Source: Corallococcus sp. AB038B
GTDB taxonomy: Bacteria; Myxococcota; Myxococcia; Myxococcales; Myxococcaceae
DNA: 64,000 nucleotides
NCBI RefSeq assembly: GCF_003668955.1
Contig: NZ_RAWO01000002.1
Span: 535,605 to 599,604 of the forward strand
Direction of reading: 5' to 3'
Shown here: positions 1 through 41,258 of the stretch, in pieces
How positions within the stretch are numbered: position 1 is the stretch's first letter
Layout: every line of letters starts with the position of its first letter
Made by a program: the position numbers and the translations under genes
Notes under the pieces: generated by a model
The model's input: only the letters and a program-made list of their open reading frames with translations
Told to the model about the DNA's origin: nothing
Databases searched by the model: none

Positions 1-1177
1 GCCGGACGCGGACGTCGTCTACTCGGATGAGGACAAGGTGGACGCGCAGGGGCTGCGCTTCGCACCCTACCTGAAGCCCTCTCTGTCTCCGGAGTTGCTG
101 CGCGCGGTGAACTACGTGTGCCACTTCCTCGTGGTGCGCGCATCGCTGCTGCGCGAGGTGGGAGGCATCCGCCCGGGCTTCGAGGGAGCGCAGGACCACG
201 ACCTGTTGCTGCGCCTGATGGAGCGCACGCGGCGCTTCGAGCACATCCCCCGCGTGCTCTACCACTGGAGGACGCTGCCCGGCTCCACGGCCACGGACGC
301 CAGCGCGAAGCCCGCGGCCTCCGAAGCGGGACGCAGGGCCGTGGCGGAGCATCTGGCGCGCATGGGGGAGGGCGGCTCCGCGGAGACGGTCTCGCCAGGG
401 CTGTACCGGATCCGTCACCCGCTCGTGGGCCGTCCCCGGGTGTCCGTGCTGCTGTCGGAAACGCCCACCGAGGCCGAACTCGCAGCGCTCCTCGCCTTCA
501 CGGACGACCTGGACGTGGAGGTCCGCGTCCCTGTTTCGTCTCCAGCAGCTTTCTCCACCGGCAACGCCATCCGCGTCCAGGTCGACGCGGCCGCGACTCC
601 GGGCGCCGTGGCGAACCAGTTGCTGCGCGAGGCCCGGGGCGAACTCATCCTCGTCCTGGAGGCAGGCACGCTTCCGACCGGACCGGGGTGGCTGCGGGAG
701 CTTGCGTCGCAGGCTTCGCGCCCCGGCGTCGGCGTGGTGGGCGCGCGCATCGTCTCTCCCTGGGGCCTGGTGCTGGAGGCCGGGCTGCGCTTCGACGCCG
801 AGGGCCAGGTGCTGCGTCCCTTCGCGGGGCTGTTCGATCCCACGCTCGGCGCATTCGGTGGCTCGCATTGGCCGCGGGACGTGCGCGCCGTCTCCAGCGC
901 CTGCGCGATGATCCGCCGCGAGGTCCTGGAGTCGCTCGGAGGTTGGGACGCGGCCTTCACCTCCGACGAGGCCCGCGGCGTGGACCTGTGCCTGCGCGCG
1001 AGCGAAGCCGGGCTGCGCGTCCTCTATGCTCCCCACGCGCGACTCGTGTGCACCCGCTCCCGGGACGACGCACCCGAGGCCACCCACGACGCCAACCGGC
1101 TCCGTGAAGCGTGGGTCCGCGCGGGACGGACCGACCCCACCGGACATCCGCGCCTCCGCTTTCTCCAGACACCGTAG
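1..1177 (+). CDS. Family 2 glycosyltransferase; the start lies before the window.
   Basis: The translation carries typical GT2 segments (..VVYSDEDKVD.., ..DHDLLLRLMERTRRFEHIPRVLYHWR..). Third-codon positions are GC-rich in this frame. A stop falls at 1175-1177. Confidence 0.7.
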   Translation, partial: PDADVVYSDEDKVDAQGLRFAPYLKPSLSPELLRAVNYVCHFLVVRASLLREVGGIRPGFEGAQDHDLLLRLMERTRRFEHIPRVLYHWRTLPGSTATDASAKPAASEAGRRAVAEHLARMGEGGSAETVSPGLYRIRHPLVGRPRVSVLLSETPTEAELAALLAFTDDLDVEVRVPVSSPAAFSTGNAIRVQVDAAATPGAVANQLLREARGELILVLEAGTLPTGPGWLRELASQASRPGVGVVGARIVSPWGLVLEAGLRFDAEGQVLRPFAGLFDPTLGAFGGSHWPRDVRAVSSACAMIRREVLESLGGWDAAFTSDEARGVDLCLRASEAGLRVLYAPHARLVCTRSRDDAPEATHDANRLREAWVRAGRTDPTGHPRLRFLQTP

Positions 1178-1288
1178 AAATGAACAGCGACCGCGCCTCC
1201 TCCCATGGGGAGCGGGCGGGCTGCCAGCCTTGACGCTCCCGGAGGGGGGTGACATGGAGGACATCCGCCAAGGAGAGGGGGGCGTGCC

Positions 1289-4200
1289 TTGCCTGCAGCG
1301 AGGGTCGGCCTTCCGGACGCCACCACCATGCATCCACAGCTCAATCCCCTGGAACACCCCCTCTGCCTCACGCAGCCCCTGCGGCTGCTGGCCTCCTCAG
1401 CCTGGGTGGAGCACGTCCCGTTCGCGATGTTCCTGATGGACCTGCTGCGTCCCGCGACGCTGGTGGAGCTGGGTGCACACACCGGCGTGTCCTACTCCGC
1501 GTTCTGCCAGGCGGTGGACGCGCTGAAGCTGGAGACGCGCTGCCACGCGGTGGACACCTGGCAGGGCGACCCGCACGCGGGCTTCTACGGGGCGGACGTG
1601 CTCGCGGACCTGCGCGCGCACCATGACCCGCTCTACAGCCGGTTCTCACAGCTGCACCAGATGACCTTCGACGAGGCACTGAGCCAGTTCGCGGACGGCT
1701 CCATCGACCTGCTCCACATCGACGGCTGCCACGAATACGCCCAGGTGAAGGCGGACTTCGAGCACTGGCGCCCCAAGATGAGCGCGCGCGGCGTCATCCT
1801 CTTCCACGACACCCACGTGCACGAGCGCGACTTCGGCGTCTGGCAGCTGTGGGAGGAACTCCGGGGTCAGTATCCGTCCTTCGAGTTCGAGCACGGCTTC
1901 GGTCTGGGCGTGCTCGCCGTGGGCCCGGAGCAGCCGGAAGGGATGCTTGCCCTGACGAGCACCCGGGACGCGGAGCGCGAAAACGTGCGGCAGGCCTTCG
2001 CCACGCTGGGCGGGCGACTGACGCTCCTGCTGCACCGGCAGCACCTGCGCGACGCCTACGGCCAGAAGGAACAGCAGGCCGCGGACCACGCGCGCCAGGC
2101 GCAGCAGCTTCAGACGGAGCTGGACGCCGCCCGTGAAGCGGCGCGCGACACCGCCAGCACCCTGCGCGAGTTCGAAGGCCGGCTCGCGCGGCAGGGCCTG
2201 GCCCAGCGGATGCTCCAGGAGGAGCTGGGCCGCAAGAACGCTCGCATCTACGAACTGGATGCGCACGTGTCGCGCCAGGGCTCGGAGCTGGCGCACATCA
2301 ACGGCAGCCTCGCGTGGAAGGCCATCAACCGCTACTGGGCCATGCGCGAGCGCGTGCTGCCCCCCGGCACGAAGCGCGGCCACCTCTACCAGAAGAGCAA
2401 GGGCACGCTGCACAAGGTGGGCGCGAAGCTGATCAAGCTTCCCGCGAAGCAGGGCGCGCTCAAGGCGCTGCGCGCCGCCAAGGCTGCCCTCACGCCGGCC
2501 GCCCCCGTCGCACTCACTGCCCCCATCCCCGCGGTCGTGGCCCCGAGCGCGCCGCTCGCGCCCCCGGCTCCATGGACCGCGCCGCTGACGCAGCTCTCCC
2601 AGGCCAGCCTGGGCCGGCGCATCCTGATCATCGCGGAGCTGTCGCTGCCCCAGTGCAAGCGCTACCGCGTGGATCAGAAGGTCGCCATGTTCCACCGGCT
2701 CGGGTACGACGTCACCGTCCTGCGCTGGAACGACCACGAGGAGTGCAAGGCCGCGCTCCAGTTCCACGGCCTGGTCATCTACTACCGGGTGCCCGCGTTC
2801 CCTGGCGTGGAGGAACTGCTGGCGGAAACGAAGCGCCTGGGTGTCCCGCACTTCTTCGACGTCGACGACCTCATCTTCGACGTGGAGGAGTACCAGAAGA
2901 ACACCAACGTGCAGCGGCTGCCGGAGAACGAGCGCGAGCTGCTGCTCAACGGCGCGAAGCTCTACCGCAAGGCGCTCAGCCTGTGTGAGCACGCCATCGC
3001 CAGCACGCCCACCATCGCGGAGCAGATGGCCCGCGTCATCTCCGGCAAGGTCTACGTCGTCGAGAACTGCCTGGACGACGGCATCCTGGAGCTGGCCCGG
3101 GAGATGGAAGCGCGCCCGCCCGCGGTGGACGCGGACACGGTCACCATCGGTTACGGCAGCGGCACCCGCACGCACGACGCCGACTTCGCCATCGCCGCGG
3201 ACGCCATCCTCGCGGTGATGGAGCGCCATCCGAACGTGCGCCTGGCCATCCACGGCTTCCTGGAGCTGCCGGCGGGCTTCGAGCGCTTCTCCGACCGCGT
3301 CTTCCGCATCCCGTTCCTGGACGCGGACGACTACCTGCGCGCGCTCGCGTCCTGGCAGATCTCCATCGCGCCGCTGGAGACGACGGTCTTCAACGACGCG
3401 AAGAGCAACATCAAGTTCATCGAGGCGTCCATCTTCCGCGTGCCCGCGGTGTGCTCCGGCTCCGGGCCGTTCCGGGAGATCATCGACCACGGCCGTAATG
3501 GCTTCGTCGCCACCACCCGTGAGGAGTGGGAGTCCGGGCTGTCCGCGCTGGTGCAGGACGCGTCGCTGCGCAAGCGCATGGGCGAGGAGGCCCACCGCAG
3601 CGTGATGGCGCGCTACCACCCGGCGGTGGTGGCCACGGAGCGGCTCCAGCCCATCCTCCAGCACCTGCCGCCCGCGCCGCCTCCGCGCCTGAAGGTGCTG
3701 GAGGCCAACATCCTCTTCGCGCCCTTGAGCTTCGGCGGGGCGACCGTCGTCGCGGAGCAGTTGGCGCACCAGTTGAAGACGGAGGGCTGCGACGTCACAG
3801 TGTTCACCGGCATCCTGAACTCGCCGCTGCCCGCCTATTCGGTGGTGCGCTACGAGGCGCTCGGCCTGCCGGTCATCGCCACCCAGGTGCCGGCCCTCAC
3901 CGACCGCGCCCAGGAGTACCAGAACCCGCGCATGGGGGAGACCTTCACCCAGGTGCTCAAGGCGGTGCGCCCGGACGTGGTGCACTTCCACTCCATCCAG
4001 CTCTTGACCTCCGCGCTCGCCACGGCGTGCGCCGCGGAGGGCATCCCGTACACCATCACCGTGCATGACGCGTGGTGGCTGTGCGAGCGGCAGTTCATGG
4101 TCCGCGAGGACGCCACGTACTGCGGCCAGAAGGGCATCGACCTGCGCGTGTGCACCAAGTGCGTGCCGGACACGCGCTACACCTTCAAGCGCACGTTCGC

Positions 4201-4945
4201 CCTGCGCAAGGTGCTGGACGGCGCGGCCCTGCTGATGGCGCCCAGCGAGTTCCAGCGCCAGCTCTACATCGCCAACGGCGTCGCGCCGGAGCGCATCGTC
4301 GTGAACAAGAACGGCGTGCTGCTGCCCACGCGTGCGCGCGCCCCGCGCCCCGCCAACGCCCCCGTGCGCTTCGCCTACCTGGGCGGCCACGCGGTGCACA
4401 AGGGGTACTTCTGGCTCAAGGACATCCTGGAGTCGGTGCCGGAGTCCGGCTGGGTCCTGAAGATGACCGACATCCAACTGCGCATGGGGTCGGCCTCCAT
4501 CGACGCGAAGGAGTGGAAGGTGAAGGGGAAGGTGGAGGTGGTGCCTCCGTATGATCAGGACGGGATGGACGCCTTCTTCGACGGGGTGGACGTGCTGCTG
4601 ATGCCCTCGCAGTGCAAGGAGAGCTTCGGCCTGACGGTGCGCGAGGCCATGGCCCGTAACGTGTGGGTGGTCACCACGGCGTCAGGCGGCGTCAGCGAGG
4701 ACATCGTGGAGGGCGTCAACGGCAACGTCGTGGACATGGCGGACGCCGACGGCTTCCGCCGCGTGCTGCGCGACCTGGTGGCCCACCCGGAGCGTCTGTC
4801 GCGCGCACCGAGCTCCCAGCACACCACCGTGCGCGACTACGAGACCCAGGCCAAGGAACTCCACGGGCTTCTGTCCGGCCTGGTGAATCCGCCTGCCCGA
4901 AGCACGCCTCTCAAGGAAGCCAACACCGCGGCGACCCAACGCTGA
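1289..4945 (+). CDS. Multidomain polysaccharide biosynthesis protein. The N-terminus is a class I SAM methyltransferase (TylF/rhamnosyl-O-MT-like). A Q/A/R-rich coiled coil and two GT4-type (group 1) glycosyltransferase domains follow.
   Basis: The N-terminal motifs [12 protein letters not shown]...HAVDTWQGD...[10 protein letters not shown]...ILFHDT fit a SAM-MT fold. Residues about 250-330 are heptad-like and Q/E/A/R-rich. Two Rossmann-like GT-B halves carry EX7E-like segments (..[21 protein letters not shown]..). The ORF is a single uninterrupted 1218 codons. Confidence 0.75.
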
Positions 4946-4963
4946 ACCCACCGGAGACGACCC

Positions 4964-5836
4964 ATGCGTTTGTCCCAGCTCAAGGCCCTGATTCCTCCCG
5001 CGATCAAGACCGTCGTGCGCTCCCAGCTCCACACGGGGCTGACACGCACGGAGAACCAGTTGGCATCGCTGCGGTCGCGCTGGTCGCCGCCGGCCCCCGT
5101 GGAGCCGTCACCGCCGGTCGTCGAGGCGCCGCCACCGCCGGCCCCCACGCTTCCGCCCATCACCCGGCAGCTCATCGCGGCCCAGTACCTGCGCGGTGAA
5201 GGCCTGGAGATTGGTGCCCTGTCCAATCCCACGCAGCTGCCCGCGGGAGTCCGGGTCCGCTATGTGGACGTGGCGCCCATCGACGTGCTGCGCGCCCGTT
5301 TCCCGGAGGTGGCGGACCGCATCGTCACGCCGGACATCGTGGACAACGGCGAGGAGCTGGGCACGGTGGCGCCGGAGTCACAGGACTTCGTCATCGCCAA
5401 CCACGTGCTGGAGCACTGCGAAGACCCCATTGGCACGCTGAAGAACTTCATCCGGGTCCTGCGGCCCGGAGGCATCCTCTTCATGGCCATCCCGGACAAG
5501 CGCTTCACCTTCGACCTGCCCCGGGCGCTCACCTCCGCGGCGCACGTCGTGGAGGACCACCTCAAGGGGCCGGAGGTCTCCCGGCGCGCCCACTACGACG
5601 AGTGGCTGCGCGTCATCGACCGGAAGGAGGGCGAGGAGCTGGCCCGCCTGACGGAGGACTTCATCCGGAACGGCACCAACATCCACTTCCACGTGTGGAC
5701 GTTCAACGAGATGTTCGAGCTGTTCTCCGCGGCCCGCGACCAGCTGGGCCTGCCCTTCGACATCAAGCTGGCCTTCCTGGATCCGCCGTGTCTGGAAGTG
5801 GTGTGGGTCCTGGAAGTGAAGAAGCCCCAGGCCTGA
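4964..5836 (+). CDS. Class I SAM-dependent methyltransferase.
   Basis: The segment FVIANHVLEHCEDPIGTLKNFIRVLRPGGILFMAIPDKR is typical of Methyltransf_11/23. It starts 19 bp after the preceding gene. Confidence 0.75.
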   Translation: MRLSQLKALIPPAIKTVVRSQLHTGLTRTENQLASLRSRWSPPAPVEPSPPVVEAPPPPAPTLPPITRQLIAAQYLRGEGLEIGALSNPTQLPAGVRVRYVDVAPIDVLRARFPEVADRIVTPDIVDNGEELGTVAPESQDFVIANHVLEHCEDPIGTLKNFIRVLRPGGILFMAIPDKRFTFDLPRALTSAAHVVEDHLKGPEVSRRAHYDEWLRVIDRKEGEELARLTEDFIRNGTNIHFHVWTFNEMFELFSAARDQLGLPFDIKLAFLDPPCLEVVWVLEVKKPQA

Positions 5837-23124: not shown

Positions 23125-23189
23125 GGCTCTGCATCATACCCACTGACGCCCGTCTCCCTCCGGCATTAAGCTTTGTGGGCAGCTAGGTT

Positions 23190-23959
23190 ATCCATCAGCG
23201 CCACATCGCCTGAATGGAGCCAAGGGCAAATCCGCTGGCGGATGACTCGCCCGGAGATGCGGCCGTCGATGGCCCCTTGATGCGTCATCAACTTGGGGAA
23301 GACAGCCCTCGCGGATGGCGCCCACCAGCGTCAGGGGTGTCCAGCGTCCTCCAGGGTGCATGCATCGGGCGCGTTGGCCCATCGGAGCCCAGCTGTACTC
23401 GCGCCATGGATGTATTGCAGAAGGACTCGCCGAGGAAGACGATCCGCTGCACGTCCACAACGCTCAGGAGCGCGGCAAAGACGCTTCTGCTCCAGAAGCT
23501 TTGCGGTGCAGCGTGCTCGAAGGCGGTGAATGACTTTCTTGGGTGAGAAGCCCAGTAGATGCAGGCCCCTTTGGATTGAGGGACGGCCGGCGATGATTCC
23601 CAGGCGGGCCATCAACTCGGCCATCAGATCGCACACCGTCGCGTCCGGCTTCCGAGCCAGCAGTAGTTTGGACTCGCTGGCCACCTTGCCCCGAATAGGC
23701 GAGAAGTTGCCGTTGCCTTTGGGCCGCAGCACGACGTCTCCCGTCTCTCGGTACAGCCGGAGGCGCGGCTCACCGTCGCTTCCCCAATGCCTAGCATGTG
23801 AGCTATCTGCACATACGACAGGCCCTCGTCGTGGAAGGCCCGATCGATAGCCCGTCGCAGCTTCTCCGGGGGATGTCCTGCGCTCATCCCCAGAGAAGAG
23901 CAAGCCTCGGCGATCGCGCTAAACGAGTCCTGAGTTAATCGCAGCGTTCGCCGTTGCAA
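23190..23959 (-). pseudogene. IS630-family transposase remnant, frameshifted and 3'-truncated.
   Basis: An N-terminal HTH (..LSYVQIAHMLGIGEATVSR..) lies in one frame. It continues in a second frame (..LMAELMARLGIIAGRPSIQRGLHLLGFSPKK..) and in a third (..GDVALMDNLAAHKA*). The third matches the conserved ..MDNLSxHK.. region and is then truncated. Confidence 0.6.
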
Positions 23960-23962
23960 TGC

Positions 23963-24448
23963 TCATTTGTTCTGTAATTCTTCTTTGATCTTGGCGATAA
24001 TTGACAGTTGTCTTTTGAGTTCTCGTTCTTCTTCGTTGATGACGAGCAGTAGCTTGTAGGGGTTTCGATGGCGCTGTCGAGTTAGCTGTCGTTTGAATTG
24101 ATTGGAGAGTCCTCCATGTACTCCAATCGTGAGCTGTCTGCGTAACTGGTCACGCAGGCGACGATACTCGCTGCCGGTCAGTCTTGAGTTTTCTTGCGCA
24201 GCAGCCAAGCCAAAAAGGGCGCGTAGTTGCTTCCCGTATTCAGATACTAACGCAAATGTGATGCCAAGCACCGCCAGCGTCATCGAGATGACGAGAAGGG
24301 CTATTTTTGTTTTGAACTCTCGTCCGCTTGGTGTGAGTGCGAATACGCTCACGGCTACTGCCGTGCCAGTTAGTGCGGATGAGACAAGCAGTCTCTTGAG
24401 TATGCGGTCAGGTTGAGAAGGTGTCGGTTTTGAATTTTTCTGCTGCAT
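23963..24448 (-). CDS. Small membrane protein with two TM helices and a cytoplasmic coiled coil; lower GC than the flanking genome.
   Basis: The ORF is 161 aa. The region is clearly AT-richer than the flanks. Two hydrophobic helices are followed by an R/Q/E/L-rich heptad region. Confidence 0.5.
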   Translation of the reverse strand: MQQKNSKPTPSQPDRILKRLLVSSALTGTAVAVSVFALTPSGREFKTKIALLVISMTLAVLGITFALVSEYGKQLRALFGLAAAQENSRLTGSEYRRLRDQLRRQLTIGVHGGLSNQFKRQLTRQRHRNPYKLLLVINEEERELKRQLSIIAKIKEELQNK

Positions 24449-24454
24449 AGATAT

Positions 24455-24952
24455 TTACTCCGTCTCGACCTGTTGGTGGATGGGCTTTGTTTGTGGGGTT
24501 TTCCTTGTAGGGGATATGTCTGATTGGCTGTTTGATGCGTCTTGATGGATGCCAACGCCTTTTATGAATAGAAAAGCGAGTAGCAAGCCTGAGCCGAGTA
24601 AGTTGCAAACGCCGGCGAGCGCGATGATGTGCCACTTGTCGAAGGGTTGACCCTCGAAGTGCTGATGGAGGGTCAGTATGAGCATGAAAACGACGAGCGA
24701 AATCAGGGTGAAGCCGACGATTCCGAGTACTCTGCGCCAGTCCTGCTGATGGCTTTGTTGCGCTAGTTCTCCAATGTATATGATGGCAGATGTCAGTGCG
24801 GCAGTGGATGATTCGATTCCAAGGAAGTATAACGGCCAATCATTCCACGCCTTCTTGCTGATGAGCTTTTTGGCAAGAACCCCAATGATTAAAAGGATAA
24901 ACGGGGGGAAGAATGCGAAGAAATAGGGGCTTTGTAAAAACTCGCCGTTCAT
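24455..24952 (-). CDS. Small four-TM membrane protein; lower GC than the flanking genome.
   Basis: The ORF is 165 aa with four hydrophobic helices. Its stop lies 7 bp before the start of the next membrane protein, so the two form an operon. Confidence 0.5.
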   Translation of the reverse strand: MNGEFLQSPYFFAFFPPFILLIIGVLAKKLISKKAWNDWPLYFLGIESSTAALTSAIIYIGELAQQSHQQDWRRVLGIVGFTLISLVVFMLILTLHQHFEGQPFDKWHIIALAGVCNLLGSGLLLAFLFIKGVGIHQDASNSQSDISPTRKTPQTKPIHQQVETE

Positions 24953-25248
24953 ACGATGGTGGATTTGAGGTGCATAATTTTGGTCGAGTGATGATGGTAG
25001 AGAATTGAATTGGATTTAAGTGCCATTGTAACGCCTTGTTCGACCTCTTGTCCTGAACATGCAGCATGGCACAAAAGAGGGGGTAGGTGTGTCCATGGGC
25101 CGCTTGTGTGCATCCTTCCTTCATTCGGGGCCCAGATCATCAGACTTGCATGAAGAGCCAACACATGGTGGCGGGGGCCGTCCGGCCAACGATGTGCCGG
25201 ATCGCTTGAGGGCGGACGGGTGTCTCGATCGCCGAACCACTCGACGGT

Positions 25249-25518
25249 TCAGGAATCGCTGTGCATGGAATGCGGCTTCTGGAAGAGTCGGCGGCGCGTT
25301 GGCAACTCCACTCGTGCGGCAGCAGTTCCTCGATGCACATCCTGGTGCGTCTGGACGCCCAACGGTACGTCGGTGAGGTACGCCTCGGGATTCACGCCGT
25401 CAGCCTCACGCATGGCGGCGAGGGGGCAGAGGTCTGCGAGGTTGTTCCTGAGGCCTTGTGGCCGACGAAAGGAAGTTCTTGCGGACAGTGCCAAGGCCCA
25501 GGTAAGCGGAGCGCGCAA
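25249..25518 (-). pseudogene. IS66-family transposase C-terminal fragment.
   Basis: ..NLADLCPLAAMREADGVNPEAYLTDV.. resembles the conserved TnpC C-terminal ..LNGxDPEAYLRDVL.. motif. No full ORF is present. Confidence 0.4.
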
Positions 25519-25968
25519 GGGTTGATTGAAGGGAACGCATACGCTGACCGCTCAGGACTGGCTACTTGCCCCACGCACGTGCGAAGAGCGGGGTATGGGT
25601 GCAGACCTGTTCAGGTTTCGGCGAGGCTGGCCCTGTCGCTCCCGAGCACACGGGCTCGCGGGCCTGATCGAAACCACCATCCAATAAGGTAAACCGCGAG
25701 CAGTCCCATAGGGGCCTATGACAACGCACTGAAGACGGGAGCGCTATGCCATGAAAAGCGCGGACGACAAATAGCCGCCGCTTTTCAGTGTGAGTTTTTG
25801 GTTGATATTTCTCAGTAGCTTCAATAGTCCCAACTCGCCTCAGGTAAGGCCTGAATCAGGAGGCTGGTTTTGATGGCAGGCAGGAAATTGCTTGCATCCA
25901 CTATGGAGTGTCTGCCGAGCGAGGTTTTATGGGTTCGAATTTATTGATGCCGCTGTCTTGGAACTTGT

Positions 25969-27255
25969 TTATTGGTCACCACTGACGTGCCACTCTGCCC
26001 GAGCTAAGAGTTCGTCGAATGTGATGATTTCCGGTTCATACAAGTTGCGTCTGTAGAGTTCGAATGACTGGTATTTATCGCGATGCACGCCACCGCCCGA
26101 GCCCCGAAGTTGGTCCAGATGTCCTGCGATAAGGAAGGAACGCGGCCTGACGACAAAGGTCCCATCCTGTGTTTCTGCCCCGTCTTCATCCGTGTCGGAT
26201 AGATATGAACCTATCTGTTTTGCAGCCAGATGAATCGTCTGCTGCACCTGAGTGACACCTCCGACAAGCTCTGGAGAAGGTGCCCAACAGCCTGGGCGAT
26301 ACTCTTGGCTTGCGAGCAGTTTGGTTTCGTGGTGTTTAATTTCTGCGAACACCATTGCGCGAATTCTGCCATTGGTGCGCATAAGGGCATCTGCGCGCTT
26401 GCCGGAACCTGCGATCGAGAAGCCGGCGACTACTTGCTCCAGTTTGTTTTTGCTCCAGGATGTCAAAAGTTGACCAGTTAAGCTGATGCCCAGGATCCAC
26501 GGGTTTTGTTCAAGAAGTGCCTGCCAGACCTGCTCCCGGCTACCCCCATGCAGGACTCGCGCGCGCTCGAAATGGTTCTCATCGGAGAGCAGATCTCGGA
26601 ACTCTTGAACCACCTTCTTGCGGTGGGCAAGTGCAACGAGATCCTCAGCCGAAGCGTCGTTCTCAATGATTTGGCGGAATTTGGCAGGGTCCCGAGAGTA
26701 CAAACGAAGCATTGCCTCAGGATCGGCGAAGAAGTCGCGAATCGTTTGATCGTCTATTCGGATTCTTGATTCCCCTCCTTCAACTGGAATGTGTTTGAGT
26801 GCCTGAATCATGTCAACGAGCCTTGCCGCAGCTTCGCGATCGAGAGTCAGGAGATTCTCAAGTTTTGTTGCGTCACCGCTCGTGGGAACTCGCTGGATTT
26901 GCAGTTCTCTGACTTGGCCCGTTTCCCGGGCAATTTGTATCTTAATTTGCTTGCGACCACCTGGCGTGGTGAACACTGTTTGCTCCGTCCGCTCTAGGTT
27001 GTGGGGTGTATTTTCGGGTTGATTTGGCTCATTAGACTCGTCGAAAACCTTGACTATGAAGCGAGCTGGCTGGCCGTAGTCCTGTGAGGCACGTAGATCC
27101 AGGGTGAAGGTACGGTGGATGTAAGTGCAGTCAGTTCTTCGGCCGCGCGCATACGTCACTTCGTTAGGTTTGAAAATGACATTTCGAGGTTCGCTATTGT
27201 TGCCCCCCGGCAATGGCGCGTTCACCCGTCGTTCATGCTCGTAGTCATGTGGCAT
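25969..27255 (-). CDS. Shedu-like (DUF4263-type) PD-(D/E)xK nuclease-domain protein; putative anti-phage defence.
   Basis: The C-terminal region ..LEQNPWILGISLTG...GKRADALMRTNGRIRAMVFAEIKHHETKLL.. fits the D...ExK core of the PD-(D/E)xK/DUF4263 family. The N-terminal half is unrelated. GC is clearly lower than the flanking genome. The ORF is 428 aa. Confidence 0.55.
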   Translation of the reverse strand: MPHDYEHERRVNAPLPGGNNSEPRNVIFKPNEVTYARGRRTDCTYIHRTFTLDLRASQDYGQPARFIVKVFDESNEPNQPENTPHNLERTEQTVFTTPGGRKQIKIQIARETGQVRELQIQRVPTSGDATKLENLLTLDREAAARLVDMIQALKHIPVEGGESRIRIDDQTIRDFFADPEAMLRLYSRDPAKFRQIIENDASAEDLVALAHRKKVVQEFRDLLSDENHFERARVLHGGSREQVWQALLEQNPWILGISLTGQLLTSWSKNKLEQVVAGFSIAGSGKRADALMRTNGRIRAMVFAEIKHHETKLLASQEYRPGCWAPSPELVGGVTQVQQTIHLAAKQIGSYLSDTDEDGAETQDGTFVVRPRSFLIAGHLDQLRGSGGGVHRDKYQSFELYRRNLYEPEIITFDELLARAEWHVSGDQ

Positions 27256-27831
27256 TTTTTTGCCTCTAGCCTATTCGCGAAGGCGTGCCGCAGCGAGTTT
27301 CTACGTTATTGCCGAATCTTCTTGGCGGGGACGTCTTGGGTGTTGGTCAAGTTGGGCACTTGCAGGGTTGGGGATGTAGGGAGGTAACGAAGTTCCTTGG
27401 GTGCTTGCATCCTCTCTAGAGGGCATCAGTCATGAGGTAGACATCAACGCCCGCGTCGGCGTTCTTGGCGCCCTTGACCTCCCGCTTGAGGGGAGTGTAT
27501 CGGTTCAGCTTGAAATCCTGGGCCCGCATGCTGTGTGAGTGATACCGGCATCTTCATCGAAAATGAACTCGGTCTTCGAGGTCATGCTTCTGACCTGTGC
27601 AGTGGATGCCAGCGTCTTGCTGGTGGGGGCCGCTGCGACGGGTCGGCACGGCGGACACTGACTTCAACCTGAGGTGAATCAGCTTCTCCCAACTGGAAGA
27701 GCGGTGTCTTGGCCGACTTCGCTCTGCTTTGGCATCACCCGGAAGCGGGATGGACACGGGCACGAAAACGCCGCCTCGCTTCCGGATGACCGGAAACGGG
27801 CGGCGTGGGCACAGCCTGAACTGACGAAGAA

Positions 27832-39888: not shown

Positions 39889-40905
39889 TCATCCGCCGCG
39901 TGGGTCGTAGATTTTCTCGGGAGGGGCCTCCAGGAAGCGGCGCCACCAGAGACGGGCCTCGTCGTCGGTGTAGCCGTCCCAGGTGTTGACGTGGGGGAAG
40001 GGCAGGAGCCAGGGCTCCAGGAACCGGGCCAGCTCGCGATACGCCGGCAGTGTCTCACCCAGCTTCGTGTCCCCGGCGAGCGGCTCGGGGCCCAGGCTGA
40101 TCAGGGCGCGGCCTCCGGTGAGTTCCTGGACGGTGGTCTCCGGATGGCTCAGATGCGAGCGAAGTGCCTGGATACCGCCAACGGTTTCGAGCAGGGGAGG
40201 GCCCAGGAAGTTCAGCCAGTGCACGTCGTCAATCCACGGTCCCAAGCCCCACGCCAGCGTAGGCGGAACGTGCCAGCCGGGATGCCTGGACAGCTGCTCT
40301 TTAAGCAGGGGAAGAAGTTTCGACCTCCCGCGTGTGAATGAGAGCGACAGCCCGGCATGGCCCGTGGAGAGCGGAAGAAGCTCCGCCAGAGACCGTGCCA
40401 GTGCAAAGGCCTTCTCGGGCCCCTGTGTCTCCAGGAAGCTTATCGGGAGCTTCACGCTCAGCACGCTGTGCTCGGAAGTGGGTTCTCTCCATGGGAGCCG
40501 AGACTCGAAACTGAATTCATAGCCATCTGGCTCCGAATGTCCTCCCTTGAGGATGACCCATGTGTCGAAGCCCCTCTTGGTCAATCTTCGGAACCAGTAG
40601 GAGTCTTGATCCATGTCGTCCAGGTATTCGAATCGAGACTTGGTGAGGTGGCGTTGAGCTTCCTCCCAAAACTCGGACTCAAGCGGGAAGGCATCCTCAA
40701 TGACGTCGGAATCCTCTCCGACGGTCAGTGCCCCGCCACTGGCAGCAATGAATCCGAGATAGGTGTCGAGGACCCGTCGTAGGACTGGGGCCAGCACTCC
40801 GTGGTCATGCGGCAGGTAGAACACGATGCGCAGGACCAGTTGGACCCGGGGGAGCGTCGGGGCGAAGTGTTGCAGGAACGGATACTTACTCACGCACGAC
40901 TCCAA
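39889..40905 (-). CDS. Hypothetical protein (possibly DUF3396/immunity-like; not verified).
   Basis: The ORF is 338 aa with good codon bias. It is the last gene of a three-gene same-strand operon. Confidence 0.5.
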
Positions 40906-40967
40906 ACTGGGGCGTGATGATCGCGGGCTTGCACTTTCCTCTCAGCTCCGCGTAGCGGGCCATTTGT

Positions 40968-41258
40968 TCACGGGTTCCGTCGTTGGAGAGGGGGTCGCCC
41001 TTGCTTTTCATCGTGCACGGGAACTTGAGGTCGAAAATGCATTGGATTTGGAATCGTGGCGCCCGCGGAAGCCGCTGCCCTCACGGCCTTGTCCATCCAA
41101 GGCAGGAACGCCTCATCCCCCGGCTGCGTGTAGCAGGTGGGATTGCGCAGACATCCACTGGTCGCGGAGTCCGTGGTCTGCGCGTACTGCCTTGGACCCG
41201 AAGCGCACGACAGACAGAGCAGGGCCACCAGCCCACCCAGGAGGCGCAACTCAATCAT
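40968..41258 (-). CDS. Small lipoprotein (about 96 aa), hypothetical.
   Basis: MIELRLLGGLVALLCLSCASG has a signal and lipobox. Its ATG overlaps the stop of the upstream gene (ATGA). The track ORF 40968..41438 extends upstream as a non-coding artefact. Confidence 0.4.
   Translation of the reverse strand: MIELRLLGGLVALLCLSCASGPRQYAQTTDSATSGCLRNPTCYTQPGDEAFLPWMDKAVRAAASAGATIPNPMHFRPQVPVHDEKQGRPPLQRRNP

Follow-up and report, generated by a model that had tools for sequence, protein, structure and literature searches.

What are the two small membrane-protein genes which lie side by side in a low-GC island of Corallococcus sp. AB038B? The stretch analysed, referred to here as the window, comprises 64,000 nucleotides of contig NZ_RAWO01000002.1 (positions 535,605 to 599,604 of the forward strand), and all coordinates are those of the window unless another locus is named. 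A first-pass annotation, made from the letters of the window, had read the pair as candidate membrane-disrupting abortive-infection effectors, as a holin-like pair or as a so-far undescribed defence or immunity module. Both open reading frames (ORFs) are intact and are found on the minus strand. The product of the first (ORF1) is almost certainly a member of a family of four-transmembrane (four-TM) proteins, and the second (ORF2) is probably its genuine partner. Together they have about an even chance of being a diverged copy, lacking a TIR domain, of a mobile two-gene membrane cassette which acts as an anti-phage switch.

24455..24952, minus strand: ORF1, 165 amino acids, ATG start; four TM helices, predicted inner-membrane protein, with a 32-residue extra hydrophilic C-terminal tail; phrog_25392 family
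23963..24448, minus strand: ORF2, 161 amino acids, ATG start; short polar N-terminus, two TM helices and a 92-residue basic tail, predicted to be helical

The extent of the pair (23963-24952), the two protein lengths and the counts of four and two TM segments had been given correctly in the first-pass annotation, as the ORFs, AlphaFold modelling and hydropathy all indicate; the spacer, put there at 7 bp, measures 6 nt (TAA-ATATCT-ATG). A feature which it did not mention is that ORF1 and ORF2 share one reading frame (498 + 6 nt, with TAA-ATA-TCT between them, window 24446-24457). Over the 990 nt this coding frame contains two stops, the terminal one of ORF2 among them, and the other five frames contain 4-24. 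The notion of a single gene split by a nonsense codon was rejected since elsewhere the paired genes overlap by 4 nt or use other frames, and the shared frame is probably a coincidence, one expected with a chance of 1 in 3. Read-through of the ORF1 stop into ORF2 would yield a six-TM protein of 329 residues (165 + 3 + 161).

Word-indexed protein searches with ORF1 returned self-matches only, and the protein gave no significant match in Pfam, NCBIfam or PADLOC. It does match phrog_25392, a family of unknown function (E=3.8e-7; residues 9-133 of the protein on positions 8-138 of the 138 in the profile). An exhaustive phmmer search of 1.84 billion representatives, for which ORF1 and ORF2 were concatenated into one query, gave 91 further matches at E<=1e-3, all of them in the ORF1 half. 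These relatives, about 90 cluster representatives, are nearly all 125-150 amino acids long and show 28-42% identity over ORF1 residues ~5-133. The hidden Markov model (HMM) of the family scores 129.7 bits on ORF1 and E=4e-39 on the window. The earlier statement that neither product belonged to a recognisable family is therefore superseded for ORF1; for ORF2, an orphan in sequence, it still holds.

The family alignment (A1, 61 sequences) contains an invariant G45 and the near-invariant residues P17, H96, Q97, L112, N117 and G120, all of which are present in ORF1; its motifs are KKLVRG, W..DFYLG.E and HQDWE. ORF1 agrees with its relatives at 20 of the 25 positions common to at least 70% of them, the deviations being R32S, D41L, F42Y, L50T and W99F, and is the most divergent member, its identity to even the closest relatives reaching 38% at most. 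AlphaFold (AF2, with A1 as input) modelled ORF1 with a mean pLDDT of 84 and a pTM of 0.69, placing helices at residues 9-31, 45-65, 72-100 and 106-143; by hydropathy TM2 is the weaker one, the other three being strongly hydrophobic. The family mean of lysine plus arginine residues is 4.2 in loop 1 and 2.6 in loop 3, and at most 0.7 in the N-terminus, loop 2 and the C-terminus. These counts put loops 1 and 3 in the cytoplasm, so that the predicted topology is N-out/C-out, with the conserved motifs on the cytoplasmic face and facing the cytoplasmic domain of the partner protein.

No Pfam family matched consistently across the members, and when 61 of them were compared with PADLOC (KwaA, ZorA, CBASS/Pycsar TM effectors and PDC candidates included) no model matched more than one, the best at E=0.003. 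Sequence searches of the PDB with the ORF1 profile and with ORF2 gave nothing meaningful. The family is patchily spread through Acidobacteriota, Cyanobacteria, Proteobacteria, Myxococcota, Chloroflexota and Gemmatimonadota. An example of its typical length (~135 amino acids) is WP_000567607 of Escherichia coli, annotated as a 'hypothetical protein'. No isolated phage genome was found to encode a member.

The DNA around other members was collected by exact-protein look-ups (loci L001-L008 and L042-L046), a scan of viral contigs (L009) and a plasmid search (L047). In addition, a degenerate DNA pattern was run over 185,579 species genomes and gave 31 loci, 20 of them with true members (HMM E 1e-25 to 5e-56). 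Twenty-eight independent loci had readable downstream DNA. In 26 of these a co-directional gene starts between -35 and +38 nt from the stop of the four-TM gene, often with an ATGA overlap; L027 and L040 have no such partner gene. The partner product is a two-TM hairpin rich in small residues. Ahead of the hairpin there is usually a short, polar N-terminal segment; after it come a basic stretch and a tail which varies. Among the 26 loci the tail is a TIR_2 domain in nine (E 3.6e-17 to 8.5e-29 where scanned individually), a short charged extension in nine (total protein length 64-105 amino acids) and of another kind in three, while in five the contig ends. A glutamate at the expected catalytic position is invariant in the eight TIR partners which were aligned (8/8); the TIR glutamate of the E. 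coli partner is E142. The partner in L006 carries WD40 propellers, that in L032 comprises three TM helices and a domain of unknown type, and that of a Variovorax megaplasmid has a soluble N-terminal domain, two TM helices and a Pro/Ser tail. The gene pairing is conserved, and many of the partners are TIR proteins. No cyclase, SMODS or other signal-generating gene stood beside the pair in any locus examined.

Two irregular members were seen. In L036 (1148-1663 and the next ORF) the TIR partner is divided into two ORFs by an apparent frameshift, and in P0070 (316 amino acids) the four-TM gene is read out of frame through TM4 into the two-TM partner; each may be an assembly error or a pseudogene. 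A RelE/ParE-like tail considered for the read-through protein P0070 was dropped, as it had no Pfam support.

The window pair has the layout of these loci: the genes are co-directional with a 6-nt spacer, and ORF2 consists of a polar N-terminus, two TM segments and a basic tail. Its hydrophobic segments span residues ~19-39 and ~45-72 by hydropathy, and the protein aligns in register with the partner proteins, of which it is the positional and architectural counterpart. The 92-residue tail contains 20 lysine and arginine against 10 aspartate and glutamate residues, and three [KR]RQL[TS] motifs, at 103, 119 and 145. A model of ORF1 and ORF2 as a fused chain, which was read for secondary structure only and carries no contact information, places ORF2 helices at 13-37, 45-87, 92-126 and 130-160; TM2 would extend beyond the membrane, the tail is predicted to be all-helical and the last helix has a pLDDT of ~90. 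The closest relatives of ORF1 (P0003 in L007 and P0004 in L008) have partners of the short-tail type, and ORF2 may therefore be an elaborated form of that type. A SLATT assignment for ORF2 was examined and discarded (NF033632 SLATT_4 E=0.78, 9.6 bits vs a cut-off of 55; no Pfam SLATT match).

Several results weigh against reading the window pair as a working copy of the cassette, and most of them concern ORF2. Its sole match in searches of 5.8 billion clusters and 1.84 billion representatives was itself, and pairwise searches against the partner proteins revealed no similarity, so that its assignment draws on position and architecture only. A first partner profile which seemed to capture ORF2 was circular and compositionally biased. 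On a profile built without it ORF2 scores 1.5 bits, a value equalled or exceeded by 60 of 149 real TM-hairpin decoys. Composition dominates this profile too, and the true partners themselves score 1-34 bits on it in leave-one-out trials. Neither ORF2 nor ORF1 has a TIR match at E<=1, and the ORF2 tail alone has no Pfam match below E=0.25. The protein may be truncated and inactive, with its C-terminal domain possibly lost, because an insertion sequence (IS) remnant of the IS630 family abuts its stop codon and the right flank of the island seems to have been deleted. ORF1 for its part departs from its family at R32S, D41L and W99F and bears an extra tail, and fold searches found generic helical bundles only. 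As regards the wider family, the genome-scan motif recovers only 27 of 95 known members, and the proportions of partner types are consequently biased. Many neighbours of the cassette are housekeeping genes (ThiC, chorismate synthase, GidA, ThiG), and those of defence type were counted without a background rate.

The surroundings of the cassette include both prophage hotspots and defence islands. Of 5,426 complete E. coli genomes, 3 carry the L009 pair (a four-TM protein, WP_000567607, and a two-TM-TIR protein, WP_000742490) at 100% identity. In E. coli SCU-172 (NZ_CP054353.1, L041) it is situated in a P2-like prophage, with the genes for the replication endonuclease gpA and a DinI-like protein on one side and the portal gene on the other; E. 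coli O157:H16 98-3133 is another strain with the pair in a P2-like prophage. The gpA-to-portal slot of P2-like prophages is a hotspot for antiviral cargo (Rousset et al. 2022, PMC9122126). In SCU-172 the pair is preceded by WP_000094764 (71 amino acids) and WP_000212611 (280 amino acids, with TM segments; L041 5617-6674), both of which occur with other cargo (PIN_12, DUF262/DUF1524) in Table S5 of the same study (PMC9122126). The recurrence of these preceding genes with different cargo points to the pair as the variable element of the hotspot. WP_000094764 and WP_000212611 may form a constant part of it.

Elsewhere, too, some neighbours are of defence type. Beside the four-TM/two-TM-WD40 pair of L006 stands a divergent gene (4106-4564, minus strand) for a 152-amino acid, two-TM protein which matches PDC-M50A, a candidate model of PADLOC (E=8e-46). 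Abi_C and, at one locus, a PIN/MazE toxin-antitoxin pair are further neighbours, and a bulk scan of 150 neighbour ORFs detected AbiU, AbiJ, mad3, PDC-S27, PD-Lambda-5_B and methyltransferases. In L012, from Nitrosomonas sp. Nm34, the gene at 4874-5257 on the minus strand encodes a YEATS-domain protein of prokaryotic type (PF20305, E=5e-9). It has the orientation of the two-TM-TIR gene and lies two genes downstream of it; some lineages may have an extended cassette. An unusual domain combination is present in L046, a 119-kb metagenomic contig, where a DEAD/Helicase_C_2 protein and a 206-amino acid protein with matches to both CsrA and MafB19-deam (cytidine deaminase) are encoded beside a four-TM/two-TM pair (1520-4113). 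With its TIR partners, the P2 cargo slot and neighbours of this kind, the suggestion of an undescribed defence or immunity module has gained comparative support, its function being inferred. The odds that the cassette is an anti-phage system at all are, in our judgement, evenly balanced.

Were it such a system, the first gene would supply the invariant subunit, a four-helix inner-membrane protein of ~135 amino acids serving as sensor or gatekeeper. The second, translationally coupled to it, would supply a hairpin of two TM helices with both ends predicted to be cytoplasmic (N-in), whose C-terminus changes with the lineage: it is a domain of the TIR NADase type, a short charged tail, WD40 repeats or, as in ORF2, a 92-residue basic helical tail. 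The two proteins would form a hetero-oligomeric complex in the inner membrane which acts as an abortive-infection switch: infection would disturb the membrane or free the gate, upon which the two-TM effector would oligomerise. In the TIR versions the TIR domains would then assemble and bring about NAD+ depletion or signalling; in versions with a tail only, the Corallococcus pair included, the membrane itself might be opened or destabilised directly. A switch of this kind is suggested by the translational coupling, the constant four-TM subunit with its conserved cytoplasmic surface, the predicted cytoplasmic location of the variable domain and the frequency of TIR domains with a candidate catalytic glutamate. 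We infer complex formation, defence activity, the roles of sensor and killer and the standing of ORF2 as a true functional partner; the gate-and-effector mechanism is proposed with less assurance than the anti-phage role. A more specific proposal, that the cassette represents an undescribed anti-phage family built of a constant four-helix sensor or gate and a polymorphic anchored effector, in which the Corallococcus tail would be a new basic three-helix module acting on membrane or nucleic acid, is tentative, its chances falling somewhat short of even.

The same arrangement could serve superinfection exclusion without cell death. The complex would block entry of the phage genome, or a phage membrane protein, in the manner of small Sie/Imm-type membrane proteins encoded by prophages, and the tail would tune specificity. 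The E. coli pair is prophage cargo of the moron type, both proteins are small and membrane-embedded, and nine partners have a short tail and no enzymatic domain, all of which would suit such a role. The nine TIR partners, however, with the candidate glutamate kept in the eight aligned, are easier to reconcile with NAD+ consumption or signalling than with a passive block, and most copies are chromosomal and outside prophages. Exclusion of this type is regarded as unlikely.

The remaining explanations, which concern the state of the window copy, its mobility and its neighbours, depend on the sequences within and around the island:

24458..24461, minus strand: GGAG Shine-Dalgarno-like motif read from the sequence, 9 nt 5' of the ORF2 ATG and within the last ORF1 codons
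25025..25054, minus strand: match to a sigma-70-like promoter (AGGACA-18-TACAAT) in an AT-rich leader, 72 nt before the ORF1 ATG
about 23165..23959, minus strand: IS630-family transposase remnant, decayed, frameshifted and 3'-truncated; helix-turn-helix (HTH) and IS630-type motifs in its translations
25140..25574, minus strand: putative IS66-type transposase C-terminal remnant; GC 0.62-0.64; frameshifted ORF fragments 'NPEAYLTDV' and 'IEELLPHEW'
25969..27255, minus strand: SduA, Shedu nuclease; PADLOC PDLC00394 E=3e-134, Pfam SduA_C E=3e-32

The island is of foreign origin; the first-pass annotation had called the two proteins foreign and their ORFs AT-rich. Overall GC is 0.49 in both ORF1 and ORF2 vs ~0.70 for the window, and GC at third codon positions (GC3) is 0.61 in ORF1, 0.49 in ORF2 and 0.55 in SduA vs 0.85-0.95 in host genes. 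The three low-GC genes lie on the same strand and are similar in composition, and on this account SduA, ORF1 and ORF2 appear to have come in as one foreign block which the IS elements would have invaded later. The pair does lie between the IS630 scar and the Shedu gene, as had been reported; the IS66-like remnant had gone unmentioned. The latter coincides with a GC-rich block (0.62-0.64, ~550 bp) which stands between ORF1 and SduA inside the low-GC island, and its assignment to the IS66 family is tentative, PF13817 (DDE_Tnp_IS66_C) reaching only E=0.048. The 5' end of the IS630 remnant abuts the ORF2 stop codon and forms the right edge of the island, GC climbing from 0.47 to ~0.63 near 23960. 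Its NF033545 and HTH matches are weak, and no inverted repeat or TA duplication was identified for it; the final few codons of ORF2 could derive from IS630. Scans of the island for tRNA and Rfam families gave no match, and no repeats marking the ends of the island or of the IS elements were found in it. The sigma-70-like match is the sole one in 23-28 kb, where 2.0 are expected by chance, so the count is not above chance; as a promoter of ORF1 it is suggestive only.

Two other parts of the window were noted for their composition. Between SduA and the gene for an ABC-F ATPase, positions 27256-27831 (~575 bp) have a GC of 0.55-0.63 and no convincing ORF, tRNA or Rfam match. A second dip in GC, to 0.62 vs ~0.70-0.73 on either side, at 40001-41000 is possibly another foreign insertion.

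These flanks bear on the proposal that the pair is a decaying remnant: ORF1 would be a relic, ORF2 would have been truncated by an IS630 rearrangement or be no true partner, and the locus would be non-functional in AB038B. The IS630 element beginning at the ORF2 stop codon and the apparent loss of the right flank speak for it, as do the absolute orphan status of ORF2, the five conserved positions at which ORF1, the most divergent member, deviates, and a promoter match at chance level. Both ORFs are nevertheless intact, in contrast to the flanking IS genes with their multiple frameshifts, and ORF1 keeps every near-invariant residue of its family. In ORF2 the GGAG motif and ATG are well placed, confidence in the model of the last helix is high and the AT-rich composition of the island extends to the stop. 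A remnant is accordingly given a low probability.

Another reading is that of an addiction pair. The two genes would constitute a membrane toxin-antitoxin system stabilising mobile DNA, the two-TM pore toxin being restrained by the four-TM protein, with no dedicated anti-phage role. The genes are indeed small, tightly coupled and mobile, one locus adjoins the PIN/MazE pair and the window copy has stayed intact among IS elements which have decayed. For simple addiction toxins, however, large tails such as TIR and WD40 are unusual, and in P2-like phages the pair occupies a slot which is exchanged with validated defence cargo. Addiction as the whole explanation is improbable, although the functions of toxin-antitoxin and abortive infection are not mutually exclusive.

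A holin/antiholin-like lysis pair from a former prophage is very improbable and already largely refuted: the two proteins are small, multi-TM and of holin-like size, and one BFVD match, weak and non-significant (E=0.54), is annotated as a holin, but Pfam, PHROGs and NCBIfam gave no match to a holin family, the window has neither an endolysin nor a phage structural gene near the pair and no isolated phage genome was found to encode the family, while the P2-like prophage of SCU-172 has a holin and lysozyme of its own elsewhere, in the late operon. Equally remote is the idea of a functional link to Shedu, with the pair as accessory subunits which might, for example, anchor the nuclease to the membrane or serve as its effector. 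The genes share strand and similar foreign composition and are ~1 kb apart, but the IS66-like debris stands between them and tblastn with the window SduA found no Shedu homologue in the other loci of ORF1 relatives (L001-L041), from which it follows that the adjacency is co-location in a defence island and not an operon or conserved partnership. Shedu works as a single gene.

On the cassette reading the two former 'orphan' ORFs become one family member and its positional partner. The wider family is more interesting than the window copy, a divergent member which lacks a TIR domain and may be truncated. Of all the parts of bacterial immunity, those embedded in the membrane are the least understood, and a constant four-TM protein which is found across at least six phyla with a partner of exchangeable cytoplasmic end amounts to a natural experiment on the coupling of membrane signals to effectors. 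Since no Pfam, NCBIfam or PADLOC model exists for the four-TM family, it is missed by current defence-finding pipelines. As P2-like prophages of E. coli carry an identical copy, the hypothesis can be tested directly in a standard host.

With regard to published systems, the papers which could be searched yielded, beyond Rousset et al. 2022, no named 2TM-TIR/4TM system, no equivalent pair and no mention of the E. coli accessions. As a general kind, small membrane proteins which work together with TIR or other effectors are already known, both from prophage hotspots and from defence islands. One of these is the AC1 '2TM + 1TM + TIR' system, which we take to be the one listed in DefenseFinder as Rst_2TM_1TM_TIR. 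Originating from the P2-like phage AC1, it protects against lambda, LF82_P8 and P2, and its membrane proteins were proposed as the effectors by the authors (PMC9122126). It shares with the cassette the P2 gpA-to-portal niche and the combination of small membrane proteins with a TIR domain. The AC1 system, however, has three genes and not two, with proteins of 126, 186 and ~300 amino acids, and its TIR domain sits on a soluble protein of its own; the window pair has no TIR. Identity of the two systems was rejected when the AC1 proteins (Table S2A) were compared with the four-TM family and ORF2 using hmmsearch and phmmer on a five-sequence database (E 0.2-2.3; 0.2-0.4 for the family). The cassette is analogous to AC1 in composition and not homologous to it.

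The 2TM and 4TM effectors of CBASS/Pycsar, TIR effectors and SLATT proteins likewise couple small TM hairpins to immune domains, and the TIR domains of the partners also match, more weakly, the CAP12/Pycsar TIR and ThsB TIR models. In contrast to CBASS/Pycsar-type systems, signal-generating genes are absent from all cassette loci examined. Kiwa is composed of KwaA, a four-TM membrane sensor, and KwaB, an effector which is a soluble DUF4868 protein. PADLOC, which includes Kiwa models, found nothing for ORF1 and no Kiwa-named match at E<=0.1 among the 61 family members. Unrelated to Kiwa in sequence, and with a two-TM protein where KwaB is soluble, the cassette nonetheless resembles it in its two-gene logic: a small membrane protein with four TM helices is joined to an effector facing the cytoplasm.

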